Position numbers and translations under genes: made by a program
Assembly: GCA_001600815.1 (NCBI GenBank)
Contig: BCKZ01000003.1
Coordinates: forward strand, 1,289,474 to 1,353,473
DNA: 64,000 nt
Direction: 5' to 3'
Origin: Alloascoidea hylecoeti
Lineage: Eukaryota
Shown here: piece after piece, positions 5,469 through 59,860 of the stretch
Layout of the letters: every line of letters starts with the position of its first letter
Position numbering within the stretch: the stretch's first letter is position 1
The notes under the pieces: generated by a model
What the model saw: only the letters and a program-made list of their open reading frames with translations
Told to the model about the DNA's origin: nothing
Databases searched by the model: none

Positions 5469-5487
5469 CAAACACAAATTATGGAAG

Positions 5488-8300: not shown

Positions 8301-8712
8301 GCTAGGCTAGGAAAGAAAGGGTTACCTAATTATGTCACGTGGTAGCGTAATTTTGTTAGAATAATTTCTGACACTATCGGTAGTTAAATTTTTTTAAAAA
8401 TCACTATTTACTATATCCTTTGGTATGAATATTCAGATAGAGGTTCTTTTGCTATCTTCCTTTTTAACAATTACTACAGAGCTTCTTTTCATCTGAATAT
8501 AAAACCCACAATCTTGATTACCTAATCAAGAGAAAATGTCAGAAACAATTATGAATAAAGCTGGTTCCATATTTTCAGCCGTGTGATGAATAAACATCGG
8601 CCATTCGATATAAAGTTCTTGACCCCTTTCTTTTCTTTCTTCGCACATTGTGACAATCACCACAAGAAACCATTTTAACAATTACAACTTGCGCCCACAC
8701 AAAAGATTTAAG

Positions 8713-12522: not shown

Positions 12523-13060
12523 TTTTCTTAACATTATTATAATTTAACTTAAATTTTTTTCTAGTTGGAAGTTTTAATTTGAAAGTTTATGAAAGTTTAT
12601 GGAAGTTAAAAAGAATAAACTTGATTATATTTATCAAATAGATCTATAGTAACTTACAGAAGGGTTCTTAGGTGTTCTTTGTTAATTTAATGTTGAGAGC
12701 TTTGATGCCTAATCTTCAAATGTATTATAGGGAGGAGCTTTCACAACCCTCAGAATTTGTCCTTTTAGTAAGTTCTACATACTATTTTGTTGGATGAGGT
12801 TTACACTAGAAAAGTTGTTGATGTTTTTATTTAAGGTGATCCCCAATATTGTATGATACAAATATGCCTAAAATAGTTACAAGTTCTATGCCACTACATA
12901 AACTGGTAGATAATTATTTTTTTATCTAGATTTCTAGTAATTTTGTGCACATCTGCCTACTTGGTATTTTGGCAGAAATAAGGAGTGAAGTTCGTAACCA
13001 TATAACCTTATTTTCTTCCCATTTGCTATTGGAACAATAACCATTTTAACAATTCCAATT

Positions 13061-14290: not shown

Positions 14291-14393
14291 TTTATTGAAA
14301 ATTGAAAATAAGCATCGATATATCGTTGCTTTCACACTCTTTTAAATAATTTTAGATTATTTTCAAATATTAATAGTAGAATAATGAGGAACG

Positions 14394-19700: not shown

Positions 19701-22700
19701 CATAGTAGAGTTGGATCAAAGAATAATCTTATATTATCTATATTGGCTGATTATAAATTACCTGCCTCTGGTAATTCTGAACTTGCAGGTTATTTAAAAC
19801 CTTCCTTAAAGAAAGTCGTTGAGTTAGATTCAAGAAGAACTTCAAAAGTTGTACTTAAAGCTCGGGAAATTCTTATTCAATGCTCATTACCATCTTTAAA
19901 AGAAAGGTACGATCAATTGGAATATATATTAAAATCATCAGTATTAGAAATGAGTTATGGTGAAATGGGTTTGGATCATTGTACTCCAAATTATAGTGTT
20001 TTAAAAGATGTAATAGATTCAAAATATGTTGTGTTTGATGTTTTACCACAATTTTTTATACATAATGATCCTTGGGTTTCATTGGCGGCATTAGAACTTT
20101 ATATTCGCAGAGCTTACAGAGTTTATAAAATTAATGAAGTAAATTATAACCAAGAACCTGGATATCCTTCGATAGTTGACTTCAAGTTCACACTTCCATC
20201 TCGCGATCAAGACTTTCATGGTGTTGATCCGTCAACTTCGGCTAGTGCAAGTGATGAAAGCATGTCACGAGCTGCTTCAATATCTGATCTATCTTTAATA
20301 TCTTCTGGCATTAACAGATCGGGTGTTATTTGTCCGGCTGCTCAAATTGACGATGTTGACGAATCAATCTCAAGAGCCCTCGATATTTTTCCAAGGAATA
20401 CAGAAGATATGTTATCTACGATGAAGAAAAATGCATTACCTTCTAGGGGAAGTACAATGAATGGAGCTCGGGGTACACTAAGCAATGTATTAATTATCCC
20501 AATTTTAGGTGTTGAAGGTCGTGAAACAGAAGAATCACAATTGAGTTATTTCAATGAGATACTTGAGTTCTTTAAAAATGATTTAATTTCTTGTTCAGTT
20601 CGTCGGATTACTTTTGTATCGGGACTCAAACTGGGGGTGTATCCAAATTATTATACATTTAGAGGACCAGATTATGAAGAGTTTAAAGAGATTAGACATA
20701 TTGAACCATCCCTTGCATTTCAACTAGAATTGGGTAGGCTTTCAAATTTTAATATTAAACCTGTCTTCACTGAAAATAAAAACATTCATGTCTATGAAGC
20801 AGTTGGAAAAAATTCTCCAAATGATAAAAGATTTTTTACAAGAGGAATTATAAGACCTGGTAGGATTAGAGATGATATCAGTATTGCTGAATATCTTATT
20901 TCAGAGTGTCATAGATTGATGACTGGTATTTTAGATACATTGGAAATTCTTGGTACTGCAGACTCAGATTTGAATCATATTTTTATCAATTTCTCTTCTG
21001 ACTTTCATGTCACACCACTAGAAGTGGAAGCTGCTTTTGGTGGATTTTTAGAGAGATTTGGTAGACGTTTATGGCGACTTCGTGTAACAGCTGCTGAAGT
21101 GAGAATTAAATGCTCCGATCCAGAAAATGGTATTATATTCCCATTAAGGGCAATAATCAATAATGTATCTGGATATGTTGTTAAATTTGAAATGTATATC
21201 GAACAGAAAAATTCAAAAGGTGAATGGGTATTCAAGTCAATTGGAAAACCGGGAAGTATGCATTTAAGAAGCATCTCAACACCTTATCCTAATAAAGAAT
21301 CTTTACAGCCCAAGAGGTTTAAAGCGCATGTAATAGGAACTACTTATTGTTATGATTTCCCCGATTTATTCAGTCAGGCAATTGCTTCCGCATGGAAGGA
21401 ATATAAAGATGATGAAATTCCCGAAAACTTCTTTTCTTCGAAAGAATTAATATTGGAAGATGGAAATGAATTACTGGAAGTAACACGAGATGCTGGGGCT
21501 AATAATATTGGTATGATAGCTTGGAAGATGTCCGCTAAAACCCCGGAATATCCTCGCGGCAGAGACTTTATAGTAATAGCCAATGATATTACTTTTAAGA
21601 TTGGTTCATTTGGTCCACAGGAAGATACATTTTTTAACAAGGTTACTGAATTATGCAGGACGCTAGGACTTCCAAGGATTTATCTTGCTGCCAATTCAGG
21701 TGCTCGTTTAGGATTAGCAGATGAGTTGATTTCATTATTTTCAGTTTCTTGGAAAGATCCTCAGGATCAATCCATGGGATGTGATTATCTCTTTCTAACA
21801 CCAGAAAACAAAAGGCTCATTGAAAAAAAGACTAAAAGCAATGTAGTACAATGTGAACGAATTATTGAGAATGGTGAAGAAAGATATAAAATCAACTGCG
21901 TAATTGGTGCTGAAGAGGGTTTAGGAGTCGAATCCTTACGTGGCTCAGGGCTAATTGCGGGTGCTACTTCCAAGGCATATAAGGATATTTTCACTATCAC
22001 TTTGGTAACCTGTAGATCTGTGGGAATTGGAGCATATTTAGTTCGTTTAGGTCAAAGGGTAATTCAAGTTGAAGGACAGCCTATTATTCTGACTGGTGCT
22101 CCGGCCATTAACAAACTTTTAGGAAGGGAAGTTTATAGTTCCAATATACAGCTTGGTGGTACTCAAATTATGTACCGAAATGGTGTATCACATTTAGTCG
22201 TAAATGGCGATCTCAGTGGGATAGAGAAAATGATCAATTGGTTATCATATATCCCAGCTAAGAAGGGAATGCCAGTACCATTTTTAGAATCCAGCGATAC
22301 CTGGGATCGAGATGTTGAATATACGCCACCTAAAAATGAATCATTTGATGTCAGGTGGATGATAGCTGGTCGAGAAACTCCAGAAAGATTCGAACATGGT
22401 CTTTTTGATAAGGCTTCCTTTCAAGAGACTCTTGGAGGATGGGCAAAAACTGTTATAGTTGGCCGAGCACGTATTGGTGGAATTCCCTTAGGTGTTATTG
22501 GTGTTGAGACAAGAATGGTAGAGAATCTATATCCTGCTGATCCAGCCAATCCAGATTCTACTGAGATGCTGATACAAGAAGCTGGACAAGTGTGGTATCC
22601 AAATTCTGCTTTCAAGACTGCACAAGCTATAAATGACTTTAATCATGGTGAAGAACTTCCATTAATGATACTCGCAAATTGGAGAGGGTTTTCTGGTGGA

Positions 22701-23540
22701 CAGAGAGATATGTATAATGAAGTTTTGAAATATGGCTCCTTTATTGTTGATGCTTTGGTTGACTTTAAACAACCAATATTTATTTACATACCTCCTTTGG
22801 GGGAATTAAGAGGAGGTTCATGGGTAGTAGTAGATCCCACAATTAACTCCGATATGATGGAGATGTACGCAGATGAAGAATCGAGAGGAGGAATTCTTGA
22901 GCCTGAGGGAATTGTTGGTATAAAGTTCAAGAAAGAGAAGTTACTTCTTACAATGGAGAGACTCGATCCGGAATATGCTAAATTGAAATCAGAATCATTA
23001 AAAAGTGGGTTATCGCAGGAGGAGTTTATAGAAGCAAGTTCTAAGTTGAAGGAAAAAGAAGAAGCTTTATTACCGATATACACACAAATTAGTCTTCAAT
23101 TTGCGGATCTTCATGATCGTGTTGGTCGTATGGAGGCAAAAGGTGTAATTAGGAAGTCCTTAAAATGGCGCGAAAGCCGTCGGTTTTTCTTTTGGAGGAT
23201 TCGAAGAAGATTAAATGAAGAATATTTACTAAAGCGGATTGGTGATGAATTGCCTACTTCTTCCAGGTTGGAACGATTTGCTCGTTTTCGCTCCTTGATT
23301 TGCCTTGATAATGATTTAGAAATTGAGAATGATCGATCTATTGCTATGTGGATTGAAGATAATTACAAAAAGATTGATTCATTCATAGGAGAGCTACACC
23401 AAGAAAGTATAATAAATGGTATGGCTAGTCTTTTAAGATCCGATAAACAAGCGACTGTCAATGGAATCATCCAGACCATGTCTAGTTTAGGTCTTTCCGA
23501 AAAAGAGAGAAGCCAGATAATCAAATCCCTCGCCAAATAG
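16735..23540 (+). CDS. ACC1: acetyl-CoA carboxylase; exons 16735-16893 and 16980-23540
   Basis: Intron GTAAGT...TGCTAAT...TAG joins HTVITS to ILIANNGIAAVKEIRS in frame. Biotin-attachment motif EIMKM; Snf1-site-like MSRAASISDLS; BC, BCCP and CT domains. Confidence 0.99.
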
Positions 23541-23911: not shown

Positions 23912-25039
23912 ATGAAGTTCTCTCTCTTTTCTGCCGTCGTTCTTTCTGGCTTGTCTTGCGCCGTTCCTCTTCCTGTTCAGCATTTGCACAATGCTCATAA
24001 GAGAGCCGTTAATGTTGTTACTGTTCTAGATATCACCACCGTAACTTCCACTGCAGTGGTCGTTAATTACGTCCAGACAAAGGTCGTGTATGTAAATGGC
24101 GAGGGCTCTATTTTGTCTGCTGAGTTAAAATCTGCTACCTCGGCGAAACCAACTACACCAACTACACCAACTACAACCTCCACCACCAAACCCACTACTA
24201 CTTCCAAGGCTACTACTAGTACTCCAACTACTACTTCCAAGACTACTACTAGTACTCCAACTACTACTTCCAAGACTACTACTAGTACTCCAACTACTAG
24301 TACTCCAACTACTACATCAACGTCATCAACTAGTACTCCAACTACTACATCAACGTCATCAACTAGTACTCCAACTACTCCAACTACTTCATCAACTAGC
24401 GCTACTCCAACTAGTATTACTCCAACTACGATATCAGCTAGTACTACTCCAACTACTACATCAACTTCATCAACCAGTGCTACTCCAACTACTTCAGCAA
24501 CCAGTACTTCCTCCCAATATACTACTTCGGTAGTTTATGCTGAAGTCGTTGTTTCAACTTCTGCTGAGCCGGTGACCACTAGTTCTGAAGAGGCAGAGAC
24601 ATCCACAGTTACTAGTGCCAGTAACGTGGAAACAACTTCTTCTACCGAAAAAACGACAGATTCCGATGTTAGTAGCACTGAAACAACTTCTGCTGGTTCA
24701 TCTTCATCATCAAGCTACTTTTCCGCTTCAAAATCGGGAGAAGCCACTTACTACGCTGCTGGTCAGGGTTCATGTGGATACACCAATACCGACTCCGATT
24801 ATATTGTAGCCATTTCCAAGACTCTTTTTGACTCAGCGGGTGTTGCCAATCCAAACAACAATCCTTATTGTGGAAAATATCTCACGGTTTTCAGGGGCTA
24901 TTCAAGTGTCAAAGTTATGGTTGTTGATAGATGCACTGGATGTGACGAAAATGATTTAGATTTAAGTTCAAGTGCTTTCGATGAAATTGCTAGTGAAGAT
25001 GAAGGAAGAGTTGACGTTGTCTGGGCTTGGAATGAGTAA
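23912..25039 (+). CDS. secreted Ser/Thr-rich expansin-like (RlpA/DPBB) protein
   Basis: Signal peptide, KR site, long Thr/Ser repeat region, C-terminal GEATYY..GQGSCG...NPNNNPYCG...VVDRC.GC..DLDLS. Confidence 0.9.
   Translation: MKFSLFSAVVLSGLSCAVPLPVQHLHNAHKRAVNVVTVLDITTVTSTAVVVNYVQTKVVYVNGEGSILSAELKSATSAKPTTPTTPTTTSTTKPTTTSKATTSTPTTTSKTTTSTPTTTSKTTTSTPTTSTPTTTSTSSTSTPTTTSTSSTSTPTTPTTSSTSATPTSITPTTISASTTPTTTSTSSTSATPTTSATSTSSQYTTSVVYAEVVVSTSAEPVTTSSEEAETSTVTSASNVETTSSTEKTTDSDVSSTETTSAGSSSSSSYFSASKSGEATYYAAGQGSCGYTNTDSDYIVAISKTLFDSAGVANPNNNPYCGKYLTVFRGYSSVKVMVVDRCTGCDENDLDLSSSAFDEIASEDEGRVDVVWAWNE
24150..24495 (+). repeat. intragenic Thr/Ser/Pro tandem repeats
   Basis: Recurrent actactagtactccaactactac units (TTSTPTTTSK / TSSTSTPTTT). 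Confidence 0.9.
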
Positions 25040-28996: not shown

Positions 28997-29851
28997 TCAA
29001 AGAACAAACATAAGAATGAAAGAAGAAATACTCAACCATAAATCATGAAAAAAACGTGCTCTCAAGGTACTTGCACCTGAGCCTGTACTTTTTCCTTCCC
29101 AACTCCAACTGATTGTGATTCGTCCCAAGGATTCATCTGCTAACTTTTTAAAAGCACTAGGACTAAGATCGAGATCATGTTTTTCACAACCAACACAACG
29201 ATCAACCACAGTAACTGATACAGATTTTGAGCCGTAATACACCTTTATTTTTTGTTTGCAGAATGGATTATTATTGGGATTCCCTGTATCCTTTGTATCA
29301 AACAACTTTTTGGAAATAGCAACTATGTGGTCACTGTCACTATTTGTCATTCCACAGGCTCCTAGAGCAGGATTGTAATATGTGCCATCTCCTGTATATA
29401 ACGACCTTCCAGTTGAAGAAGCACTCGACTCATCTGATGAATATGCAGAGTCGGAATTTATAGTGCTTGAACTTGAAACTGATGTTGATAAACTGGAGCT
29501 GAAATTTGAAATAGATCTTGAAGTCTCATACGCCCTATTATACACACGATAGTTTAGATCTGGAGAATTCTTATTCTTGATCATAGAGGTCGGCTTTATT
29601 GAGATTTCAGGCTCGATGCTCGAAGTAATTATGCTATTACTGATAGCATTAATATTATTTGAAACTGAGCTAAAGTTGGGTATATCGCTTTCATTAGCGC
29701 TGATGTTGTTGATATAAAGTTCCTGTTCGGTTTCCTTGTAATTATAAGTGGGAATTAAATCTGCTTTACCTTGGGCCGTGATCGTAAATAAACACAGATA
29801 GAAGGATAGTGAATTTATCATCTCAATCCTGTACCTATATATTGATAGCAT
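28997..29851 (-). CDS. expansin-like (RlpA/DPBB) protein with hydrophobic C-terminal tail (possible GPI or TM anchor)
   Basis: TGDGTYY..LGACG...NPNNNPFC...VVDRCVGC..DLDLSPSAF; tail LWLSISSFILMFVL. The start may be Met11. Confidence 0.9.
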   Translation of the reverse strand: MLSIYRYRIEMINSLSFYLCLFTITAQGKADLIPTYNYKETEQELYINNISANESDIPNFSSVSNNINAISNSIITSSIEPEISIKPTSMIKNKNSPDLNYRVYNRAYETSRSISNFSSSLSTSVSSSSTINSDSAYSSDESSASSTGRSLYTGDGTYYNPALGACGMTNSDSDHIVAISKKLFDTKDTGNPNNNPFCKQKIKVYYGSKSVSVTVVDRCVGCEKHDLDLSPSAFKKLADESLGRITISWSWEGKSTGSGASTLRARFFHDLWLSISSFILMFVL

Positions 29852-37857: not shown

Positions 37858-39181
37858 ATATAAGTGTTTTAAATATTTACTCCTTAAATTTGTGGTAAAA
37901 TCATAATTAACAAGACCACCGTCTATAGTCAAAATAGACAATCTTTTTGAATCAGCAAAAGCTTTCAAAAAGGACTTAATATATCTTTAAATTTATAAAC
38001 CATTAGTGGTTCTAGATCATTCAAATTCCAAATCTTAGTAGTATAATCAAAATTAACAGAAAAGATCATATCGTTAACTACAAATAATGAAACTGTTCCT
38101 TCATTAGAACTTTTTTTATTCTAGTTGTTTGTAAATCCAGAACTGTTATTCTGTTGGTTTTAAGAACAAATAAGTATTGATCATTTAGTGTAATGGAATT
38201 TAGAAGATTATACTGAAATTCTTGATCATTTTACCTGTTTCAATATTCCAGGTTTTTACATTGTAATACCCTGTATTAGAAGGAATTCCATTACGAGTAG
38301 AAACACTTTTGATGCAACCTCTTCTTTTAAATCGTGTTGTAAATTAAACTGCAGTTGATCTTCAGAATCAAAACTTGATTTCCAAATAGCAATATTCATA
38401 AGAAGATATAATGTAGTCATTGTATAAGATGACAACCATTACAGATAATTTATTACCAATTGGCCTTGGTATTATCAAACGAGTTGTTGGTTTAAAATCT
38501 GATAATTTAATACAAGAACCATCAAAAGAAGAGAACCAAATATTTATCATTAATATCCAAACAATTAACTTCACCCATATATGAAATTCGGTATTTATAT
38601 CCTTTGTCAATTCCAATATCTCCGCATTTGACAAGTCCTTTTTTGAATTTGGTTCATCTAATACTTTTAAACATTCAAGATTTCATTATCCCAAATTTTT
38701 ATTGTACTATCTATTAAGCTAGTTAAAATCAGGTTTTAAAACATTTAACAGAATATGTATTGGGGAATTTACGGTTTAATTTATGTAGTGTGAAATCATC
38801 CAATTTAATTCTAAAAGAAATTGTTAAAGTTCAAAGTGCCTGTTCTCCCAGTTGCGCCAAAAAGCCAATCGACTCTTTAGTGAACTGTTCTAAGAGTGTA
38901 ATATATATCCAACAGAAATCGTTCCTTATATAATTCAAACCACGAATCAGTTTCGACATCAACATTATAGTAGTTCCAATATTTTTTCATCTTCAAGCTT
39001 TGATCCCTATAATCTTTAACTATTTTATTCCATGATTTAGAAACTCTTCTATAATGAGTAAAGTTGTTGGTGTCAAATTTGAGAAGATATTTTCAGATAG
39101 ATGAAAACAAAATTGATCTTGAAGATTCTTAAGTGTGTTAAAATGATCGATTATAGTCTGTAAATTCTTGTGTGAAGGCAT
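37858..39181 (-). pseudogene. near full-length degenerate F-box/WD40 pseudogene with an internal insertion (~38820-38915)
   Basis: ATG at 39181, F-box remnants, ETDSWFELYKER, MINIWFSSFDGSC, WNIETG, tail NLRSKYLKHL; many indels. Confidence 0.85.
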
Positions 39182-40622
39182 ATTTCAACTGTTAAAATGG
39201 TTGTTACTACGGGGTTCCAATAAATATTAAATGGGGTTTTTAATCACAAATAAGGAGAAAAGAAAAGGGTTATTTTTGTTTTGGAGTGATTAATTTAGAC
39301 TTCTAGATCTAGATATATATGCAGATGCATACTAGGAGGCTACCATATATGGCTCTGCACATATACATAATTACTATATATGAATCTACATTTATGCAGA
39401 AAAACCTTATAAGGTTAATGGACATAAAAACTGAAGATGAATTTCGTCGCAATCATCACAATTATTCTTTTCATATCTCTTGATCTGATCCAGATCTAGA
39501 TGGATGCACATTTGGCTCACAAATGATTGGGAGTCGGGGTTGTAAGTCATAGTTTCATCACATTATACTCTTGTCACCATACTCTTCCTATCCATTTGCA
39601 ATTGGAATGGGATATTTACATATTTTTTTGATACCTTGTTCAGACTGTCGACTATGTTGAGCTACGAAGTTAAGTTAATATCCGATAATACATAATCTGT
39701 AGCAATTGTTCCCCGGATCTGAATTCTTATATGACCCTCTTTTAATGTTCCCCTCCTCCATAAACTTTCTTTCTACCAGTGCCCTTCTCATCACTTTTAT
39801 TTCGCCATCTGCTTTTATTTACCGAATAATTGCAATACCATCTTTTGAAAACATAGCATCTTTCATTAGCGATAGTTTTCCACTAGACCGTCACTTCATA
39901 TACTTCTTTGATAAACTCTAAATTGATCTTTCTTTGAAACTTCTTCGTAACAGCCGAATATCGAGTGTTTCCTCTTGGACTTTTTTATAAAGCCCTTGTC
40001 TCTCCCTGCGATCTCGCAAAAATACGTTAGCTTTACGCTATTTTGTTTGGTCTCTACAGTGCAGTGGGTTTGTAATTGATCCAGACGGACGCGTCCCGAT
40101 TCTTTGGCTTCAACACAAAATCAGTATCAGTATAGGGGTGACCTGATCCGACTAAATAGACGAGATATTTTTAGTTCAGAGTCATCTACTAGCATTGGTT
40201 AAAAATGATTAAGATTTCGATGCATAAGATATGATCAAGTAAGAAATTTACGAGTTCTGAGTAAATCAAGGTCTGACCATCGATCCGTGGTCCTCAAAAT
40301 AAGGCTATAAATGGAAGGAAAAAAAAGTGAATTCATTCATAAAATCTCATGTAATATTGATTCAGATTATTGAAACTCTACTCTGATTGGCCAATTAATC
40401 CCGCAATTGTGGCGTATAAATTAATAGAAAACTATTTAAACAGTGAATAGTCCCCTTATTTTTATACAATGTCAGTAGAGTTGGCAATCTTTAAAAGTTT
40501 CTTTCCCTCACTTTTTTTAAATCTTAATGCTATCACAATATTTTTCATCAAAATCAATAAATTTTTACGATATTACTTAAAAGAAACTCTTTTAAATTTT
40601 TTTTCTGTTATAAAATAAAATA

Positions 40623-47004: not shown

Positions 47005-47800
47005 TAGTTAATGCAACTGGTATGGTAGAAGACTTAGTTGGAGAGAATTGACCCCATTCCGCCCAGATAAACGCGTCCGAGTTCACCATCAAACGCGCCA
47101 TTAACGCAGAGGGTTTTCATCGACGTTCAGCCTACAAACGACCTTTTGTTTCCAAGAGAAACATTGTCGTTAGATATTCATATGCCAAGGGGCACGCTAC
47201 CAAAAATATAGACTATTAGCGGAAACATTTATATGGAGACGAAACGTCCTTTAACACATCCATCAGAGGAAAAACTTAGGTCACAAGACGAGCAGCAGAA
47301 AAATTCAATCAGGACTGCGTTGAACTTAATTTTGCAAGTGGACGTAGTTCGGTGATGATATGGGGAGGTATTGGGTTTAATTATAAAAGTCCATTGGTGA
47401 TTTTCAAGAAGGAGAAGGGAAAGGGTATAGATCATCAAATGTATCTGAAACAGGTATTAGAACCAGTGGTAGGATCTTGTTTTAATACGATATTCAAAGT
47501 ATCAGAAGGTGCCGAGTATGTTGAAGATGGGATAAAGTTGTTGTGTGAAGCTAAACGAATGTTGAATATTCCAATTCATAATCGTCCGGCTTCATCCCCG
47601 GACTTCAATCCGATAGGAGATATTTGGAAAATACTCAAGCAGCGCATCAAGGCTCGATTAGTATTCCCGAATACATTAGAAAAGATGGAAGCCGTTTTAT
47701 TTGAAGAATGGAAGAATAACATATGAAGAAATCAATAAATATACCTGCTCGAATTTCAACTACTTGAAAGAAAAGGGCTACAGATTATTGAAGCTTAAGA
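47005..47800 (+). mobile_element. Tc1/mariner DDE transposase relic (several stops, no TIRs seen)
   Basis: TIKRAINAEGF.RR.A.KRPF, GDETSF, SVMIWGGIG, RPASSPDFNPIGDIW (catalytic E replaced by G). Confidence 0.88.
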
Positions 47801-48073
47801 ATAATAACGTAACTTGATTATTAAATACTACATATATGAATGTATCTGAAAAGTTTTATTTCAATTTGATTTTAGGTAGTTTAGTTAATAAATATGTAAT
47901 GTGAAAAATGAAAGGAATTCTCATTTGGGCGTAAGGAAACAAGAGTGCCATTTCTTTTGCAGGGTACTGGTACAGTAGATTTCCCAAAAAAGTATAACCC
48001 CTTCCTTTCTTCCCAGTTTGTTGTTATCGGAAACAACCATAATATTACTGGCAGGCTTTTAAACAATAACAAT

Positions 48074-49345
48074 ATGTCCTTACAGAAAAATATCGATCTT
48101 GTTTCTGATCTCCCTGATGAAATATTTGAGCTAATCTTCTCGGATTTGCCACTAACAGCTTTGCTCATTTGTAGAAGAGTTTCTAAATCATGGAAAAAAA
48201 TAGCTGAAAATGATAGTATATGGAGACCAAAATTTCAAGATCAAATATCTTGGAGATACTACAATTATGATTCAGACACTGATTCGTGGTATGAATTATA
48301 TAAAGAACGTTATCTTTTAGACTTAAATTGGAAGCATGATAGATTTACACAGCATAAATTAAGTGGTCATTCTGCATTTACATTCTGTGTTAAATTTTTT
48401 AAAAACTGGATTATAACAGGTTCAGTTGATTGTACAATAAGAATTTGGGATAATGAAACCTATCAGTGTTTAAAAGTTTTGGGTGAACAAAGTCCTAAGT
48501 TTTTAAGACAATTTGATGTACCAAACTTTGATATTTTAAGAGAAAAGCTATCAACAAAGGAAATATTGGAATTAGCAAAAGATACTGATATCAAATTTCA
48601 TTTGGATATTGTTAGATGTATGGATATTAATGATAAATACTTGGTTTCTGGTTCATCTGATGGGTCTTGCATATTTTGGAAATTATCAGATTTCAAACCA
48701 ATGAATCGTCTGATAATACCACCACAAAGTGGTCACAATTCAGTTATAAATAGTCTCGCCTTATACAATGATTATATTGTATGTTGTGATGATAAATATA
48801 TTACGGTTTGGAAATCAAGTGTCGATGATTTAGAACATCAACTACAGTTTAGTTCAAGATACCGTTTAAAACTAGAAGGTTACAGTAATAATATTTGCAT
48901 TCATAATGATATTATATATTTAAGAGAATTTAAAGGTATAAGATCCTGGAATATTGAAACTGGTCAAATCATTCAAGAAATTCGAAATAATGTAATGTGT
49001 ATTGCAGCAAGTGATCAATATTTATTTATTGGTGAATACAACACAATAACAGTTTTAGATTTACAAACTAATAAAAGAAAAATTATTTCATCAAATGGAG
49101 GACCAATTGAATTATATACAGTTGATGATAAAATTTCTGTTAATGAATCTACTATTAATATTTGGAATTTAAATGATCTAAAATTATTTAAAGAATTTAA
49201 AATTTTAAACCATGAAAAATATTTGCGTCCTGCTTTTTCAATTTGTGCTGATTCAAAAAGGTTAGCTGCTTTTACTATGAACGGTACTTATATTATTTAT
49301 GATTTTACTGAAAAATTGAGGAAAAAATATTTAAAACATTTATAA
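48074..49345 (+). CDS. F-box/WD40 protein, copy C
   Basis: ATG 48074 MSLQKNIDLVSDLPDEIF; longest insertion between WD1 and WD2; tail LRKKYLKHL. Confidence 0.92.
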   Translation: MSLQKNIDLVSDLPDEIFELIFSDLPLTALLICRRVSKSWKKIAENDSIWRPKFQDQISWRYYNYDSDTDSWYELYKERYLLDLNWKHDRFTQHKLSGHSAFTFCVKFFKNWIITGSVDCTIRIWDNETYQCLKVLGEQSPKFLRQFDVPNFDILREKLSTKEILELAKDTDIKFHLDIVRCMDINDKYLVSGSSDGSCIFWKLSDFKPMNRLIIPPQSGHNSVINSLALYNDYIVCCDDKYITVWKSSVDDLEHQLQFSSRYRLKLEGYSNNICIHNDIIYLREFKGIRSWNIETGQIIQEIRNNVMCIAASDQYLFIGEYNTITVLDLQTNKRKIISSNGGPIELYTVDDKISVNESTINIWNLNDLKLFKEFKILNHEKYLRPAFSICADSKRLAAFTMNGTYIIYDFTEKLRKKYLKHL

Positions 49346-49761
49346 TCTACTGAAAATTGAAAATAAACATTGTTGCCTAAAGAAATTTCATAATATTAAC
49401 CCCCATTAGTTAGAAAGTAACTTGAAATATTTTATCCTAATACATGTATTATGAATGTAATTTATCCTGATTGTATTTATCGAATACTGCCATTCCACGA
49501 TCATGATCAAAACTTATTATAACCTATGACTTTATTAATTATATTGCAACTTCTGAAATAAAGATACATGTAATATGTATAGTAGATATCGATACTTATT
49601 TTTTACCAGCATCTGCATATTTTAATCACGTTTACTGAGTTATGATAACGTTGATATAGAGAGTAAAGTTTGTTGCTCCATTCTTTTCTTATCATTTTTT
49701 ATTGGAAAAAGCCAGAATATTACTGAAAGCAACTTAAACATCCCATTTCAACAATTCCAAT

Positions 49762-50297
49762 ATGTCCTTACAAAGAAATCTTTAGACGACAACCAATTAT
49801 GTTTCCGATCTTCCTTATGAATTATTTAACATAATCTTCTCAGATTTGCCAATAATAACCTTACTCACTTGCAGAAGAGTTTCTAGATCATGAAAACAAA
49901 TATTTGAAAATGATGTTATATGGAGATCGAAATATCAAGACCAAATATCTTGGAGATACAATAATGAAGCTTCATAACTTAATTCATGGTATGAATTGTA
50001 TAAAGAGCGTTATATTTTAGAATCAAATTAGAAAAATGGTAAATTCACACGACATAAATTAAGTGGACATTCTGACAAAACATATTGTGTTAAATTTTTT
50101 AAAAACTGGATCATAACTGGTTCAGTTGATTTTACAATTAGAATTTGGGATAATGAAAACTTTGAATGTTTAAGAGTATTAGGAGAATCAGATTCTGAGA
50201 TTTTACGACAATTACCACTTCCTCATATTAGAAGACGAGAATTCTCAACAATGGATATGTCGCGATTAATAAAAGATATTAATATCAAATTTCATTA
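49762..50297 (+). pseudogene. F-box/WD40 pseudogene, 3'-truncated, with two Trp-to-stop codons
   Basis: MSLQRNL..VSDLPYE; TGA at 49891 and TAG near 50028 where paralogs have TGG; homology ends at IKFH. Confidence 0.9.
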
Positions 50298-51858: not shown

Positions 51859-52770
51859 AAATATATAATCATGATCAACAGTCGATGGTATCTTCTTATT
51901 ATGCTCATAGTGTTAACTTTATTAGCCGTACATATTTTTATACATGCATAATTATAATAAAAATATATGAGAAAATGCGATACGTGGACCCTAAAAGGGT
52001 GAAATCCTAAGCTTTCTAGGGTGAAAATGATCATTCATATACATATCATGTGATGGGAATTATCCGTTTGAGATGTAAGTTAAAAGATAACATTTTTTCA
52101 TCCATATTCGTGATAATTTGCAAATTAATTAGTGATGATTTGTGCATTTAATTGGTTTATTTATTAAATATAGTTTATTTTATTTGAGAGTCATTTGGTG
52201 ATGTTTACAGAAAATTATTAGTATACGTAATAATATACCTAAATTTAACTATATGAATCTTGAAGATAGGTTCAAGAATAAATTAGAGGCAATAAAGAAA
52301 AGCTACCACTGAATTAATTCTCTTAGAAACATGGGTAGGAACTACTAGGAAATAGCGAATTAATAGGTTTCCATCTGGAGAAATGACCAAAAACGAAGCA
52401 CCGAACTATTCGCTTAAAAAGAGATGTAATAATTGAAAAGTAAACCCACTGTGAAAACGAAGAACATATAGTTACTACACAAAGTAGTACACCTCTGTTC
52501 AGTGTTTATATAGATGTCTACTTGAAAGACTAAATGTATATCAAGCAAGCTAATTGAAAGCTAAAAGCAAAATAGTCTATCACCCTAGTATCCTATCTTT
52601 CATTTTCAATATGGTGAATTCATAGTGGAAAGATTATATTTCCAACTGATCAACAATCCGCAGTGGAGATGAAATTCTTACAATTATGTATGCAGGCCCA
52701 TTTAAAAAGAATGGTTGATATTATAAATCAAAACTTCTTCAAGAAACAATGTCTATTTTCAATTAATAGA

Positions 52771-54015
52771 TTATAAATGTTTTAAATATTTTTTCCTTAA
52801 ATTTTCAGTGAAATCAAATACAACAACATCACCATCCATAGTAAAAGCTATCCTTTTCGAATCAGCGCCAATTACACGAGGAGTAATTTCTAACGATTCT
52901 TGACCTATACTTTCAAATTCTTTGAATAATTGTAGGTCATTTAAGTTCCAAATCCTAATAGTAGTATCAAGATTAATAGAAATGATTCTATTATTAACTA
53001 TAAATAATGCAGCTGCTCCTTCATCTGATAAAATATATATTTCATTTGTTTGTAAATCCATAAGTAATACCGTATTGTAATTACCAACAAGTAAGAAATA
53101 ATCAGTTGCTGCAATGCAATCTAGAATATTAAATTGAAACTCTCGGATTATCTGACCAGTTTCAATATTCCACGTTCTGATATTGAAATTCCCAGCACCA
53201 TATAGAATACCATTTTTGATACAAAAACTTCTAACGGAATCTTCTGGGTCTAAACGGTATTCCAAATTAAACTGTAGTCGGTCTGTTAAATCATCAAAAC
53301 TTGATTTCCAAACACTAATATTGTTATCATTACATACAATATAATCATTGTATAAGGCAACAGCTTTTATATATGAATAACTTTCTTCGTGCGTTGATGT
53401 TATCAGACGTTTAACTTGTTTAAAATCTGGTAATTTCCAAATTATACAAGAACCATCATATGAACCAGAAACCAAATATTTATCATTAATATCAATAGAA
53501 CTAACCTCACCCAAATGAAATTTTGGATCAGTAATTAATTCCAATTTATCCGCTGATGATGAAACTTTTCTTAAAACCTCAGGATCTGGTTTACCTATAA
53601 CTTTTAAACATTTAAAAGTATCGCTATCCCAAATTCTTACTGAACAATCTTCTGATCCAGTTATGATCCAGTTTTTAAAAAATTTAACACAGTGTGTTCT
53701 GCCAGAATGACCTTCTAATATATGCTGTGAAAATTTACCATTTTTCCAATTTGATTCTAGAAGAAGATTTTCTTTATACAATTCATACCATGAATCGGTT
53801 TTTGAATCATCATTATAGTACTTCCAATATTTTTGTTCTTGAAACTTTGATTTCCATATACCATCATTTTCGACTATTTCCTTCCATGACTTAGAAACTC
53901 TTCTGCAAATGAGTAGAGCTATTATTGGTAAATCTGAGAAGATTGTTTCAGATATTTCATTTGGGAGATCGGAAACAAGATCGATTGTCATCTCAGTGTT
54001 TCTGTGTAAGGTCAT
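52771..54015 (-). CDS. F-box/WD40 protein, copy D
   Basis: ATG 54015 MTLHRNTEMTIDLVSDLPNEI; intact to LRKKYLKHL. Confidence 0.92.
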   Translation of the reverse strand: MTLHRNTEMTIDLVSDLPNEISETIFSDLPIIALLICRRVSKSWKEIVENDGIWKSKFQEQKYWKYYNDDSKTDSWYELYKENLLLESNWKNGKFSQHILEGHSGRTHCVKFFKNWIITGSEDCSVRIWDSDTFKCLKVIGKPDPEVLRKVSSSADKLELITDPKFHLGEVSSIDINDKYLVSGSYDGSCIIWKLPDFKQVKRLITSTHEESYSYIKAVALYNDYIVCNDNNISVWKSSFDDLTDRLQFNLEYRLDPEDSVRSFCIKNGILYGAGNFNIRTWNIETGQIIREFQFNILDCIAATDYFLLVGNYNTVLLMDLQTNEIYILSDEGAAALFIVNNRIISINLDTTIRIWNLNDLQLFKEFESIGQESLEITPRVIGADSKRIAFTMDGDVVVFDFTENLRKKYLKHL

Positions 54016-54480
54016 ATTGTAATTGTTAAAATGGTTAAAATGGTTAAAATGGTTCTCAATAAATATTCTGGCTTTTCCAATAACAAACAAGAAAGAGAAA
54101 AGGGTTATGCACTTTACTCCCTGTTTGGGGATCTCCAATGAACGCGATGAATCTACTTGTTTGTGGGTAGGACTACCAAATTTTCCTAGTAAAGCTAAAT
54201 GATTATCTGGGATATCACTGATTAATTTCCAAAAACAACGCTAATTAACTGCCAAACCTATCGCTAATCATTTTCGAAAATAGCGCTACCTCTATTATAT
54301 ATTAATAGGTGGAAAGTAAGACTCACCAAAAGGAATTAATTGTTCATAAAAAGTTATAAAGCATATACGTGTATAATTGTATAATATTGTAATTATGTAC
54401 TTATAATCTGAGCGCTCTAAAATCACAACATTGCACTTGCAATGAAGAATGAACTAGCCTTAAATAAGCCATCAGGAACC

Positions 54481-54501
54481 TTTTTTTTTTTTTTTTTTTT
54501 T
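54481..54501. repeat. poly(T)21 tract
   Basis: Read directly from the sequence. Confidence 0.95.
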
Positions 54502-54937
54502 GATCAATTAATACCATATCGTAAATATACTTAACGAGCAAACCTCTTGCTCCATAGAATTTTAAACATCTTAGAGTGCAATGAAAAGCTTTAAAAAAAA
54601 GTTATGAAATGTCTTCAGATATTATGATGATGATAATGCTTTACGTATTATAAGTAATAAAGTTTCAATAAATTTCGTCTGAACATCTACATGTATGAGA
54701 ATCTTACTATTTCACTGATATGGCTGTAAAAAAGTATTAAGAACTGGATCCCTCACCGATGTGCCAACTGCAAATACCCCTTCCAATCCAACTTACGTAT
54801 ACCCCTTATTGCTTTAGTATTAATACATGTACAACAAAATGTTTTTTAATATTATATGCATTAATAAAGGATTAATATTACCAATTGACATTCATTTAAG
54901 AAACCAAGTTTATTTTCAATTTTCAATTTTCAATAGA

Positions 54938-56188
54938 TTATAAATGTTTTAAATATTTTTTCCTTAAATTTTTAGAAAAATCAAAAACAACAACATCACC
55001 ACCTATAGTGAAAGCAGCTAACCTTTTAGAATCAGCACCAATTACACAAGGACTAACATCCAATGTTCCTCGTATTAAATTTTTAAATTTTTTAAATGAT
55101 TGTAGATCATTTATGTTCCAAATCTTAATATTACAGCTAAGATTAACAGAAATGATTTTATTATCAACTACAAATAATTGGCATCTGTCTTCATCGAATA
55201 AAAGCTTTGTTTCTTTCGTTTTTAAGTCCATAGCTGATACTTTGTTGCAATCACCAACAAACAAGTATTGATCATTTACAGAAATGCTATCTAGCATATG
55301 AAATCGAAACTCTTGGGTTATTTGACCAGTTTCAATATTCCAGGTTGTTACCTTGAAATTCCCAGCACTATATATAATACCATTTTTGATACAAAAACTT
55401 CTAACGGAATCTTCTGGGTCTAAACGGTATTCCAAATTAAACTGTAGTCGGTCTGTTAAATCATCAAAACTTGATTTCCAAACACTAATATTGTTATCAT
55501 TACATACAATATAATCATTGTATAAAGCAACAGCTTTTATATATGAATAACTTTCGTGCGTTGATGTTATCAGACGTTTAACTTGTTTAAAATCTGGTAA
55601 TTTCCAAATTATACAAGAACCATCATATGAACCAGAAACCAAATATTTATCATTAATATCAATAGAACTAACCTCACCCAAATGAAATTTTGTATCATTA
55701 TTTTTTATTAATTCCAATGTATCCCATGCTGACAAAACTTTTTTAACACTCTCATGGTTTGGTTTTCCTATTACTTTTAAACATTGAAAAGTATCACTAT
55801 CCCAAATTCTTACTGAACAATCTTCTGATCCAGTTATGATCCAGTTTTTAAAAAATTTAACACAGTGTGTTCTGCCAGAATGACCTTCTAATATATGCTG
55901 TGAAAATTTACCATTTTTCCAATTTGATTCTAGAAGAAGATTTTCTTTATACAATTCATACCATGAATCGGTTTCTGAATCATCATTATAGTACTTCCAA
56001 TATTTTTGTTCTTGAAACTTTGATTTCCATATACCATCATTTTCGACTATTTCCTTCCATGATTTAGAAACTCTTCTACAAATGAGTAAAGATTCTGGTG
56101 GCAAATTTAAGAAGACTATTTGAGATATTTCAGAAGGAATACTGGAAACAAAATCGATTGCTGTCTGAAGACTTTGGTGTAAGGACAT
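54938..56188 (-). CDS. F-box/WD40 protein, copy E
   Basis: Intact 416-aa ORF. Confidence 0.93.
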   Translation of the reverse strand: MSLHQSLQTAIDFVSSIPSEISQIVFLNLPPESLLICRRVSKSWKEIVENDGIWKSKFQEQKYWKYYNDDSETDSWYELYKENLLLESNWKNGKFSQHILEGHSGRTHCVKFFKNWIITGSEDCSVRIWDSDTFQCLKVIGKPNHESVKKVLSAWDTLELIKNNDTKFHLGEVSSIDINDKYLVSGSYDGSCIIWKLPDFKQVKRLITSTHESYSYIKAVALYNDYIVCNDNNISVWKSSFDDLTDRLQFNLEYRLDPEDSVRSFCIKNGIIYSAGNFKVTTWNIETGQITQEFRFHMLDSISVNDQYLFVGDCNKVSAMDLKTKETKLLFDEDRCQLFVVDNKIISVNLSCNIKIWNINDLQSFKKFKNLIRGTLDVSPCVIGADSKRLAAFTIGGDVVVFDFSKNLRKKYLKHL

Positions 56189-56921
56189 ATTTCAATTGTC
56201 TAAATGGTTTAAATGATCTATATGGTTGTATTATTGCCCTTTCCAATAACAATAATATGGGAAGAGAATAAATGAAATCTAGTGAATCTTTATTATTCTA
56301 CATATTTTAATTAACTGCGTTATAATATAGAGTGAATGTAGGTTCCTTCATTTTTGTAGGTTGATCATACACTAATTAAGTCCAAGTTTTTATTCCACGT
56401 GGTGAAATAAGTCAGAACAAGTAGTGAAATATTTGTTAGATAAATTATGTAATTATCTAAAATTATATGCCCAAATATCTTCCTTAAAATTTACGAAATA
56501 TACTACTTACAAGGAATCACTAAAAGGATGTTACTGCATTGAAACTATATTCAATCGTACGTGTAAATATTTATGACTAATTCGAATATAATTGAGCCAA
56601 ATAACTAAATATGTTGTCACCTGGGTAAAACATATTTCAATACCTTAAGTAGAAAGAGTCCATTTATTAAAAAGTCTAGAAGCGCCCATGAGAACCAATA
56701 ACTATAACAATCTCACTATATCACCTATTATGGGTGAACAATAGTATCAACAGCTAGATCACTCAGCAATATGTCAAATATGTTTCTATTCTAACCCCTT
56801 ACATTAATATTAATACTATTAAATGTTTTTTAATTATTACGCATGTCACAGTTCTCTAGTAATGAGGGTTTGATACTATTAATTGAAATTTCTTTAACAA
56901 ACGATATCGATGCTTATTAAA

Positions 56922-58163
56922 TTATAAATATTTTAAATATTTTTTCCTTAAATTTTCACTAAAATCATAAACAACAACATCACCATCCATAGTAAAAGCA
57001 GCTAGCTTTTTTGAATCAATACCAATTGAATTAGTAGACAATAAATCTAAATTTTCATTATCTAAAATTTTAAATTTTTTAAATAATTTTAGATCGTTTA
57101 AATTCCAAATTTTAAAACTACTACATTCATGATTAATAGAAACTATCTTATTATCAGATATAGATAATTTAACTAGTCCTTCTTCTTCTTCTTGATCTGG
57201 TAAAATTTTTATTTCATTTGTTTTTAAATCTCGAAATGTGAGCACCTCATTCTCAGAGACAAATAAATATTGAGCATTTAATCCATGACATGCAATTTCA
57301 TCATATTTGAATACTTGGATTTTTTGACCAGTTTCAATATTCCAGGATGTTATTAAAGCTTCAGATTCTCTAGAATATATAATATCATTATGAATGCAAA
57401 TTAACCTAATCCAACTTCCATTTTTCAAAATATGTTGTAAATTAAACTGCTGGTGTTGTTCTAAATCATCAAGACTTAATTTCCAAACCATAATACTATA
57501 ATCAACACAACATACAATATAATCATTGTATAAAGCGAGACCACATATAGGTGGTGGACTGTAATCTCTTTCTATTGGAATTATGAGACGTTGTATTGGA
57601 TTAAAATCAGGTAACTTCCAAATTATACAAGAATAATCATATGAACAAGAAACTAGATATTCATCATTAATGTCAATAAGCCAAACGACGCCGAAATGAG
57701 TTTTAATATCCACGTCTTTTACTAATTCTGAAATTTCTATCGCCGTGAATATCCGAAAATCTGGATTACCTAAAACTCTTAAACCTTGATAACTTTCACA
57801 GTCCCAAATTATAATTGTACAATCTGAACCAGTTATAATCCAATTTTTAAAAAATTTAACACACCATGTACAGTAAGCACGGGAACATAAGTGATATCGT
57901 GTGAATCTATCATTTTTCCAATTTAAGTCTAAAAGATACCGTTCTTTATATAATTCATACCATGAATCAGTTTCTGAATCATCATTATTGTATTTCCAAT
58001 ATTTTTGATCACAAAATTTTGATCTCCATAAATGATCATTATCAGCAATATCTTTCCATGAATTAGATACTCTTCTACATTCAAGTAAAGTTGTTGGTGA
58101 CAAATTCAAGAAGATTATTTCAGATATTTCATTTGGGAGTTTGGAAACATGATCGATCGTCAT
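56922..58163 (-). CDS. F-box/WD40 protein, copy F
   Basis: ATG 58163 MTIDHVSKLPNEI; intact to LRKKYLKYL. Confidence 0.92.
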   Translation of the reverse strand: MTIDHVSKLPNEISEIIFLNLSPTTLLECRRVSNSWKDIADNDHLWRSKFCDQKYWKYNNDDSETDSWYELYKERYLLDLNWKNDRFTRYHLCSRAYCTWCVKFFKNWIITGSDCTIIIWDCESYQGLRVLGNPDFRIFTAIEISELVKDVDIKTHFGVVWLIDINDEYLVSCSYDYSCIIWKLPDFNPIQRLIIPIERDYSPPPICGLALYNDYIVCCVDYSIMVWKLSLDDLEQHQQFNLQHILKNGSWIRLICIHNDIIYSRESEALITSWNIETGQKIQVFKYDEIACHGLNAQYLFVSENEVLTFRDLKTNEIKILPDQEEEEGLVKLSISDNKIVSINHECSSFKIWNLNDLKLFKKFKILDNENLDLLSTNSIGIDSKKLAAFTMDGDVVVYDFSENLRKKYLKYL

Positions 58164-58999
58164 CTTAAGATTTTTGTCCGAGGATAGCAATTGATTGTTA
58201 TAATTAGTATAATTATGGGTTGCTAAATCCCGAGTGTTTCGGTAGAAGGTTCCGGGAAAGAAGCACATCTTATATTTTTTAAGCTGATAAGCTTTAAAAT
58301 AAAAAAGTGATTAAATTTATATTTATGTTAGCTATACCAATTTCTCTATGTTTCAGGAGTGTCAATATAATCAATTACAATACCATAGATTAATGGGCTG
58401 GAATGACAATATTTGATGAAAACAATCAGGCTAAATAACATTAATTAATATAAATATATATGTTTCTTAATATATATTATTTTGATTTTCGTATATCTTA
58501 ATTATAACCTCTAGTATATTAAGGGCTATTCAACGTATTCAAAATTTAAATTTGGATTAATTTCTTCTCTATTATTTTTTCTTTTTAATGTTAGATAATC
58601 TTAAAAGTAAAGTTAAAAATGACAGAGTGGATAATAATAACTTAAATAAAGACCCTATGAATAGTACCATAACATCCCTTGAAACAAGAAAGAAATACAG
58701 GTATTACCATGCCCAGCATGCAAATGTTCAAAAAAATCAAAATTCATTTATGATATTACACCAAAGTAATGTTAATTCTGCACCATCAGATAAAGACAAG
58801 GAGAAAGGTAATGATATGGTATGGATAACTCTTTTGAATTTAGTTTTTCTAAAGAGGTTTAGCAGGGTCGAGATACAAACGAATTAAAATTGATAAAGAT
58901 CACTCTGAATCAGATTCCTATGATTAACGTTCATATATTCAAATTTGTTATTATCAAATATGATAAATAAGTATAAATTAAATATTTTATAATAAAATA

Positions 59000-59860
59000 T
59001 TAATATTGATTATTTACTGCGATGCTATCTAGATTACGAAATTTAAACTTTTGGATTATTTGACCAGTTTCAATATTCCAGGTTATTACATTGACATACC
59101 CAGCAGTATATAAAATTCCATTTTTGATACAAATGCATCTAACGAATTTTCCTATGTCTAAACCGTATTCCAAATTAAACTGTAGTCGGTGTTCTGAATT
59201 ATCAAGACTTGATTTCCAAACCCTAACATAGTTATTAATAAATACAATATAATCATCGTATAAAACGACATCTCTTATGATATAATTTTGTTCTAATGGT
59301 ATTATCAGACGTTTAACTTGTTTAAAATCTGGTAATTTCCAAATTATACAAGAATCATCAAATGAACCAGAGACCAAATATTTTTCATTAATATCAATAC
59401 AACTTACTTTATGAAAATGATGTTTTATATCCTCATTTTTTATTAATTTATATTCAGCATGACGTCTTCTTGAAATCCCAGGATCTAGTTCACCTAATAC
59501 TCTTAAACATTGATAAGTATCATTATCCCAAATTCTTATTGTACAATCTGCTGAACCAGTTATAATCCAATTTTTAAAAAATTTAACACAACATGTTCTT
59601 TCAGAATGACCAATTAATTGATGCTGTGAAAATTTACCATTTTTCCAATTTGATTCTAAAAGATACCGTTCTTTATATAATTGATACCACATTATTGTAT
59701 TTCCAATATTTTTGTTCTTGAAACTTTGGTTTCCAGATACTATCATTTTCAGCTATTTGTTTCCATGATTTAGAAACTTTTCTACAATCAAGTAAAGTTG
59801 TTACAGGTAAATCTGAGAAGATTATTTGAGATATTTTATAAGGGAGATCAGAAACATCTT
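59000..59860 (-). pseudogene. F-box/WD40 pseudogene (frameshifting deletion of DDSETDS; C-terminal blades lost)
   Basis: F-box VSDLPYKISQ is in a different frame from WYQLYKERY...; homology stops at VNNQY. Confidence 0.88.

Follow-up and report, generated by a model that had tools for sequence, protein, structure and literature searches.

Interlocus gene conversion that leaves islands of divergence between adjacent duplicated genes has been described before, and it provides the closest known parallels to the locus reported here. In Tigriopus, the duplicated genes GOT1p1 and GOT1p2 show such a mosaic, and islands of divergence that persist despite conversion are presented there as a signature of selection (PMC3728101). 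Yeast interlocus tracts are reported to average ~50 to several hundred bp (PMC3924818). For mitotic events in S. cerevisiae, patchy or discontinuous tracts and template switching are reported in ~15-33% of cases; they affect ~20% of conversion tracts and, in an mlh1 strain, one third of the heteroduplexes (Yin, Dominska, Yim and Petes, 2017, PMC5531827). That study accounts for such patterns with template switching or with repair that mixes conversion and restoration. Here we describe a mosaic of this kind in two tandem F-box/WD40 genes, D and E, of Alloascoidea hylecoeti. They lie in a stretch of 64,000 nucleotides (assembly GCA_001600815.1, contig BCKZ01000003.1, positions 1,289,474 to 1,353,473), called the window below. 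The two near-identical tracts shared by D and E (293 and 320 bp) fall within the yeast interlocus range given in PMC3924818. The background identity of the two genes (~78%) is lower than is usually held to be permissive for interlocus conversion.

Both genes are intact and stand head-to-tail on the minus strand (all coordinates are those of the window):

52771-54015, minus strand: gene D, intact F-box/WD40 open reading frame of 414 aa by Pfam, ATG at 54015
54938-56188, minus strand: gene E, intact F-box/WD40 open reading frame of 416 aa by Pfam, head-to-tail with D

A global DNA alignment of D and E divides the coding sequences, from 5' to 3', into five segments that differ sharply in identity (SNP, single-nucleotide polymorphism):

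D 53917-54015 and E 56090-56188, minus strand: first 99 bp of the coding sequence (33 codons, F-box start), 30/99 differences, 69.7% identity
D 53624-53916 and E 55797-56089, minus strand: tract 1, 4 SNPs in 293 bp, 98.6% identity
D 53526-53623 and E 55693-55796, minus strand: island, 20 SNPs in 98 aligned bp plus a 6-bp indel, 79.6% identity
D 53206-53525 and E 55376-55692, minus strand: tract 2, 1 SNP in 317 aligned bp plus a 3-bp indel (D 53386-53388), 99.7% identity
Remaining 432 bp of the 3' coding sequence, minus strand: 91/432 differences, 78.9% identity

The island is 98 bp long in D and 104 bp in E. In tract 1, three of the four SNPs are found within the first 27 bp, and the other 266 bp form a core with one SNP. 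Each near-identical segment is thus bounded on both sides by far more diverged paralogous sequence, which is the mark of an interlocus conversion tract. An earlier note on this DNA had reported two nearly identical tracts, a very different loop between them, and divergence at the F-box start and in the last three blades. The tracts, the divergent start and both loop peptides were recovered as described. The lower bound given for tract 1 (~53600) reached about 24 bp too far, and the divergent 3' part corresponds only roughly to three blades: it comprises strands b-d of blade 4 and blades 5-7.

Outside the coding sequences the two genes share little. Alignable intergenic bases are 69% identical upstream (78 aligned bp) and 77% downstream, and no D/E similarity was detectable past ~70 bp upstream or ~60 bp downstream of the coding sequence. 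The tracts are 76-83% identical in DNA sequence to the paralogs A, B, C and F of the window (listed below) and 83-86% identical to a nearby pseudogene, psG; across all other copies in the window the range is 70-86%. The island scores 62-75% against other copies and is below the tracts in every comparison. In the first 99 bp, D is 81-83% identical to A, B, C and F versus 69.7% to E, and the nearest copy to E is B (80.8%).

Statistics were calculated with our own scripts, among them our own GENECONV-type implementation in place of GENECONV itself, and the bootstraps assume independent sites. By Fisher test the tracts differ from the island (P=3e-14) and from the flanks (P=4e-37), and the island and the flanks are equally diverged (P=0.69). 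Among 27 family proteins, D and E are also nearest to each other at the island (66% identity versus at most 59%). Taken together, the two results indicate that the island is old D/E sequence and not a recent import. None of the 27 proteins is close to the divergent segments of D or E; the best matches reach 72% (N-terminus) and 65% (blades 4-5). The GENECONV-type permutation test, which the earlier note had suggested, was run on the six intact genes of the window (1158 ungapped columns, 557 polymorphic, 15 pairs). The longest concordant run between D and E spans 72 polymorphic sites and was reached in 0 of 10,000 permutations, both pairwise and over all 15 pairs. The next-best pair was A/B with a 19-site run and a 66-bp exact match (8844-8909 and 13216-13281) in the IWKSKFQDQKYWKYYNDDSETD region (pairwise P=0.002, global P=0.55). 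An old, short conversion or plain conservation of the stretch could account for this match; with a global P of 0.55 it is not significant and was not accepted as an established tract.

Synonymous divergence (Nei-Gojobori pS) drops in the tracts. Tract 1 has a value of 0.075, with three of its four synonymous changes at the 5' edge, and tract 2 one of 0.016; the island reaches 0.28, and all non-tract codons together 0.25. Uniform synonymous divergence along D and E, which had been named beforehand as the observation that would speak against conversion, was therefore not seen. The same tract codons show a pS of 0.19-0.45 to paralogs B and C. Since pS is low between D and E and high to B and C, the identity of the tracts reflects recent common descent and not constraint. 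Recent non-reciprocal exchange between D and E is highly probable on these grounds, and ectopic conversion, which the earlier note had proposed, is the best explanation of the tracts. Two other origins were rejected. Hypermutation of the island after one continuous tract does not fit an island pS (0.28) at the level of the flanks, and a single unequal crossover does not fit tracts that are internal with divergence on both sides.

The divergence between D and E was further expressed as a ratio to the average divergence that separates these two genes from A, B, C and F; 1000 bootstraps were counted for the two genes being mutual nearest relatives (95% confidence intervals in brackets):

Tract 1, minus strand: ratio 0.07 (0.02-0.15), mutual nearest in 1000/1000
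Tract 2, minus strand: ratio 0.03 (0.00-0.06), mutual nearest in 1000/1000
53100-53205 (E ~55270-55375), minus strand: graded zone 3' of tract 2, divergence 0.18, ratio 0.52 (0.33-0.73), mutual nearest in 985/1000
52774-52899, minus strand: 3' end, ratio 0.62 (0.39-0.86), mutual nearest in 846/1000
Island, minus strand: ratio 0.70 (0.45-0.96), mutual nearest in 371/1000
52900-53099, minus strand: blades 5-6, ratio 1.02 (0.84-1.19), mutual nearest in 37/1000, D and E not sisters here
First 99 bp, minus strand: ratio 1.32 (1.02-1.60), mutual nearest in 0/1000

The ratio rises gradually over ~200 bp 3' of tract 2, and the 5' edge of tract 1 is sharp. With at least three classes of relative divergence along the gene, the earlier label of a patchwork is apt. 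To judge from the sequences of these copies, the three classes may represent layers of exchange of differing ages. The zone at 53100-53205 is a candidate for an older conversion layer; older exchange probably lies behind this zone and the 3' end, and perhaps behind the island too. In the first 99 bp and in blades 5-6, D and E are as unlike as any two family members. Ratios of 1 or above could come from faster divergence or from exchange with paralogs outside the window.

The presence of the tracts in the organism was examined with Logan contigs from four DNA runs of three studies, aligned to the D copy only (52500-54500) so that one stretch did not contain both copies of the tracts. No RNA run with this DNA was found among the 10 runs listed. 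The first and second runs come from one sample, which is possibly the source of the assembly; the third is a wood-decay metagenome and the fourth carries the same organism label in another study. In the first run the unique downstream flank has a depth of 59.4. Three D-specific pieces have similar depths, 56.2 (52787-53235), 51.3 (53496-53653) and 54 (53837-54471), and show no difference from the window. The middle piece consists of the island with 30 bases on each side, the contig ending 30 bases inside the tract edges. The tract pieces are found at ~2x single-copy depth (53206-53429 at 93.4, 53662-53751 at 105.2); for the tract 2 contig the factor is ~1.6-1.9x. A second contig (53153-53235, depth 57.9) has precisely the seven letters by which E differs from D here, and it runs into tract 2 where the D piece does. 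At 53199 and 53205 the E alleles make up about half the local depth, and so does the 3-bp deletion. No other variant at least 90% alike over the tract cores was found in the contigs. In runs of all three studies the contigs have their breaks at the tract edges. The other three runs gave the same pieces and ratios, except that the island piece of the fourth run was not among the listed pieces (bin depth 8.25). As two contexts, each at single depth, surround one tract sequence at ~2x depth, the tract is present twice and not three times in the genome. It was concluded that the tracts exist in the DNA of the organism and are not a product of assembly or polishing. A second, fragmented public assembly, with a 100% identical ACC1 and a B that differs by one residue, comes from the same strain or one very close to it. 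D and E are not among its proteins of 227-725 residues, an absence that a break of a short-read assembly at the shared tracts would produce.

D and E resemble intact seven-bladed F-box/WD40 (FBXW-class) substrate receptors of Skp1-Cullin-F-box (SCF) ligases, as far as domain searches and a structure model can predict. In Pfam, PF12937 scores 43.3 bits in D and 40.7 bits in E (cut-off 24.3) and PF00646 scores 40 and 38.2 bits (cut-off 20.5). The WD40 match of D has 47.7 bits (cut-off 27), and that of E is also above threshold. An AlphaFold2 model of D made from a 24-sequence family alignment has a predicted local distance difference test score (pLDDT) of 77.8 and a predicted template-modelling score (pTM) of 0.77. 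It contains F-box helices at residues 11-56, a linker helix at 76-92 and 28 strands assigned to seven blades; the strand labels are our own assignment, with the tryptophan ending strand c as the sole check. The top Foldseek matches are beta-TrCP/FBXW11, Fbw7 and Cdc4 (6m93_A, 6wnx, 2ovr_B, 3v7d_D and 1nex_B), with E-values of 4e-28 to 2e-21, template-modelling (TM) scores of 0.60-0.70 and sequence identities of 16-20%. On this model, the F-box from its second half onward, the linker helix and strands a-c of blade 1 come from tract 1. Strand 1d and most of a 30-residue insert in the 1d-2a loop, modelled as two short helices (145-153 and 157-161, pLDDT 53-73), are encoded in the island, and blades 2 and 3 together with the start of blade 4 in tract 2.

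Canonical WD40 propellers bind ligands with their top face, which is made up of the d-a and b-c loops. Column entropy over 24 aligned family members is 2.24 bits in the d-a loops and 2.16 bits in the b-c loops, compared with 0.69 bits in the a-b loops, 0.93 bits in the c-d loops and 1.21 bits in the strands. Family members thus differ chiefly at the expected substrate-binding sites, and the loop encoded by the island is among these. Its insert differs in length and sequence across the family. Tract 1 shows the least protein variability across the family (0.94 bits), and tract 2 is average (1.33 bits).

The following account of the mosaic is, in our judgment, likely to be right as a whole. D and E would be old tandem paralogs of a fast-evolving family of F-box/WD40 substrate receptors. 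Very recently, one or two non-reciprocal events (interlocus gene conversion) would have copied ~710 bp from the middle of one gene to the other. A stretch of 98/104 bp would have escaped; it is the most diverged part of the gene middle and the bearer of the larger (6-bp) indel. With its divergence and this indel, it would offer the least stable heteroduplex, and strand exchange would be most prone to halt or to be rejected there. There may have been two separate short tracts, each ending at the diverged island. Alternatively, a single tract of heteroduplex or repair synthesis may have undergone patchy mismatch repair (mixed conversion and restoration) or a template switch over the island. Selection is not needed for the island to have stayed unconverted.

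Other explanations of the same pattern were weighed against this account. The tracts might be an artefact in which paralogs were collapsed or their consensus homogenised during assembly or polishing. The window does have a 370-N scaffold gap and three single Ns elsewhere, the contigs do not phase across the tracts, and D and E are missing from the protein collection despite the presence there of the second assembly. The de Bruijn contigs of all four runs nevertheless show one tract sequence at double depth with two single-depth alternatives at both edges, and E alleles at half depth, so that an artefact is very improbable. Still less credence can be given to the view that purifying selection of extreme strength, acting on tract DNA or RNA (for example on an embedded element), keeps the tracts identical without any exchange. 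The low protein variability of tract 1 would suit it; the average variability of tract 2, the identity of only 70-86% to every other member in the window and the pS to B and C all speak against it. A recent duplication of the whole gene, with later import into one copy of an N-terminus, an island and 3' blades from other members, draws on the first 99 bp, where D is nearer to four other copies than to E, and on the bootstrap counts there and in blades 5-6. Under such a duplication the intergenic DNA should be alike, but it is as diverged as between old paralogs and nothing aligns further out. The D-specific segments are single-copy (depth 51-56 versus 54-59 in the flank) and so have no identical donor, no close donor was found among 27 sequences, and at least three imports would be required versus one or two tracts. 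We consider this course of events improbable.

The alternative that deserves most attention is selection on the island. D and E would convert recurrently, and convertants over the 1d-2a insert would be removed, as the insert would set substrate specificity. The position of the island in a d-a loop, one of the two most variable loop classes, and the variation of its insert in length and sequence agree with this proposal. The graded 3' boundary and the intermediate zones suggest repeated conversion, and the signature described for Tigriopus (PMC3728101) is of the same kind. Conversion at ~80% identity is inefficient according to PMC3924818, and continual homogenisation is a priori likelier than a one-off event. 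On the other side, the dN/dS ratio (non-synonymous to synonymous change) of the island is 0.58 (13.5 non-synonymous versus 5.5 synonymous changes), with no excess of amino acid change. Tract 2 includes two d-a loops that vary just as much (residues 206-217 and 256-262, 2.4 bits), and these were overwritten; D and E are identical there except for one codon. The divergence ratio of the island (0.70) is also below that of the N-terminus (1.32) and of blades 5-6 (1.02), and the island itself was maybe converted earlier. Protection of the island by selection is therefore possible but rather unlikely. The earlier statement that conversion spares the variable loop describes the newest tract or tracts correctly; a selective cause is not supported by the island's dN/dS or by the two homogenised loops.

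Several considerations count against recent conversion with an island that escaped without selection. In PMC3924818 an identical segment of ~200 bp is given as the efficient minimum in yeast, and rates in mouse and hamster fall sharply near 80% identity. At a background identity of ~78-85%, conversion would be strongly suppressed and a one-off event is unlikely a priori. Long-running conversion of the gene middle is favoured by this reasoning, and an island of 100 bp beside active tracts is then easier to explain with selection. The comparison covers 25 distinct members of a possibly much larger family, and the events are read from one genome. The contigs give no phase across the 293- and 320-bp tracts, although the segment-wise comparison of D and E does not depend on phase. 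Depth was measured on the D copy only, and a third-party donor for the island of E is possible.

A pseudogene of the same array is the closest relative of D and E:

58988-59855, minus strand: psG, pseudogene with a 5' frameshift and a 3' truncation, homology ending at ~residue 309 of the 414 in D

It is ~80% identical in DNA sequence to D and E over 873-885 bp. As the earlier note had pointed out, the motifs GKFSQH, PDFKQVKRLI, LQFNLEY and CIKNGI tie it to D and E; among 27 family sequences they are found only in these three. In 50-bp windows the identity of psG to D varies from 50 to 96% and is mostly 80-90%, with a peak of 48/50 in a family-conserved stretch; no near-identical tract between psG and D or E was found in these windows. 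The longest exact match is 53 bp, with a concordant run of 20 sites (uncorrected P 0.003-0.004), and it lies partly in a family-conserved stretch. It is at most the trace of an old short exchange. Among other pseudogene and gene pairs in the permutation test (C/psC2 P=0.047, A/psA0 P=0.74, F/psG P=0.064) none stands out. The earlier suggestion that pseudogenes act as donor cassettes is thus not borne out by psG. Nor did the proposed shuffling of blades hold: no new blade combinations arose in the recent events, which made the two genes alike in the second half of the F-box, in the linker and in blades 1-3.

Family copies in the window were located by tblastn with D as the query. The census comprises six intact genes, four larger pseudogenes and three short fragments. 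Besides D, E and psG these are, with the short fragments left aside:

7591-8329: larger pseudogene
8713-9951, plus strand: gene A, intact
13061-14290, plus strand: gene B, intact
37861-39202: larger pseudogene
48074-49345, plus strand: gene C, intact
49681-50295: larger pseudogene
56922-58163, minus strand: gene F, intact, 70-71% DNA identity to D and E

D, E, F and psG form one head-to-tail array on the minus strand. No tract common to F and D or E was found by DNA comparison or in the permutation test.

The copies share sequence just outside the coding region. A conserved block lies immediately 5' of the start codons (54016-54090, 56189-56260, 8640-8712, 13000-13060 and 48000-48073), with a consensus of roughly AACCATTTTAACAATTACAAT followed by ATG; the unit AACCATTTT occurs three times in D. 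In B-E a pyrimidine-rich block, TTCTTCCCA...TTGTTATTGGAAA, is found ~40-70 bp upstream. The conserved 5' block may be a shared promoter or 5' untranslated region (UTR) element. Because of this block, the mechanically called open reading frames of A, C, D and F reach past the real ATG; that of D starts at a TTG at 54138, upstream of the ATG at 54015. A conserved 3' block (TAATCTATTGAAAATTGAAAAT...AAAGAAATTTCA) begins at the stop codon in A-E (52700-52773, 54870-54940, 9949-10010, 14288-14350 and 49343-49400) and could be the shared 3' UTR or terminator element of the family.

The window is AT-rich (~30% GC). Among named relatives, those closest to its acetyl-CoA carboxylase gene (17085-23537) belong to Saccharomycotina (Nadsonia 72%, Blastobotrys, Sugiyamaella and Wickerhamomyces ~70%), and the host therefore fits a budding yeast. 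A Ty1/copia-type retroelement (2423-6648, Pol beta-barrel and RVT_2 over three broken open reading frames) runs up to the 370-N scaffold gap (6672-7041), which the pseudogene at 7591-8329 and gene A adjoin. A fragment of a DDE_3 (Tc1/mariner-like) transposase open reading frame (47352-47726) is found just 5' of gene C. Two genes with a C-terminal DPBB_1 domain (expansin/lytic-transglycolase-like double-psi barrel; 23912-25039 and 28997-29851) lie on opposite strands ~4 kb apart.

Searching the protein collection with D, we found 20 further close members with 46-59% amino acid identity, after which identity falls to 29% or less over comparable lengths. These 20 include C itself and a B that differs by one change; D and E are not among them. 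With the window genes counted in, the family has at least 24 distinct intact members and is restricted to its lineage, in a Saccharomycotina yeast. A scan of metagenome contigs with the family alignment gave no close relatives; 56 pattern matches included three loci at 26-35% identity. About 300 contigs per run match a 2-kb stretch of D at 90% identity or more. Over the most conserved stretches (52768-52834 and 53438-53504) the summed contig depth is 80-150x single-copy in the four runs, a figure that is not a copy number. These counts hint that the 24 members known as proteins are a small part of the family. Outside the tracts, dN/dS between members is 0.8-1.0. The F-box start of E is unusually diverged from all copies: the first 33 codons (56090-56188) show a dN/dS of 1.4-1.6 against D, B and C, compared with 0.5-0.9 for D against B and C.

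The mosaic itself is a clear but ordinary case of interlocus gene conversion between duplicated genes. It is a textbook-quality example in which the process is still active between copies ~78% identical overall, and it means that family trees and dN/dS values will mislead unless they are computed segment by segment. The family context, with tandem arrays, pseudogenes, dN/dS near 1 and variability in the d-a and b-c loops, is more interesting than the mosaic. One might speculate, although we think it doubtful, that this is a diversifying F-box/WD40 repertoire of tens to about a hundred copies. Conversion would keep the Skp1-binding scaffold and the first blades uniform, and selection would keep the 1d-2a insert and blades 4-7 distinct, as in a recognition system that adapts quickly (its targets being, for example, selfish elements, viruses or toxins). 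Such a repertoire would be comparable to nematode and plant F-box expansions and so far undescribed in Saccharomycotina. No F-box/WD40 expansion in budding yeasts was found among the titles listed in a limited full-text search of the literature, which does not prove absence. Should the family be as large as the contig depth suggests, the adaptive plant and nematode expansions would have a yeast counterpart, in an experimentally tractable kind of organism.

As in interlocus gene conversion between other duplicated genes (e.g., GOT1p1/GOT1p2 of Tigriopus, PMC3728101), D and E show internal tracts of a few hundred bp in adjacent paralogs with old flanks. The drop in pS and the persistent diverged island likewise agree with what is described in PMC3728101 and PMC3924818. 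Like the patchy mitotic tracts of S. cerevisiae, the D/E pattern has converted markers around an unconverted stretch. The events in PMC5531827 are allelic, were seen directly in the laboratory and have kilobase tracts, whereas the D/E pattern is an evolutionary end product between paralogs, for which reason one event is indistinguishable from two. Among fungi, the HNWD/NWD genes of Podospora anserina (het-d, het-e, het-r) likewise constitute a recombining WD40 multigene family with a diversifying recognition surface (PMC2873952). According to the same source, HNWD proteins are STAND NTPases whose WD repeats are in concerted evolution; D and E carry an F-box instead. No NTPase (NACHT) domain was found in D or E, where Pfam gives only F-box and WD40/propeller families. 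Highly similar internal WD repeats were not found in them either, each gene having one direct repeat pair (32 nt, 72%). The partners in the D/E exchange are whole-gene paralogs aligned in register, and not repeat units as in HNWD.

D and E share the order of F-box, linker helix and WD40 propeller with the FBXW receptors beta-TrCP/FBXW11, Fbw7 and yeast Cdc4. Those are single-copy conserved regulators, whereas the D/E family is multi-copy, tandem and lineage-restricted, with pseudogenes and a dN/dS of ~0.8-1. The 30-residue helical 1d-2a insert also sets D and E apart from the FBXW regulators. In having many fast-evolving receptors, tandem arrays and pseudogenes, the family is like the F-box expansions of plants and nematodes (e.g., in wild isolates of C. 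elegans). These plant and nematode families mostly pair the F-box with other substrate-binding domains.

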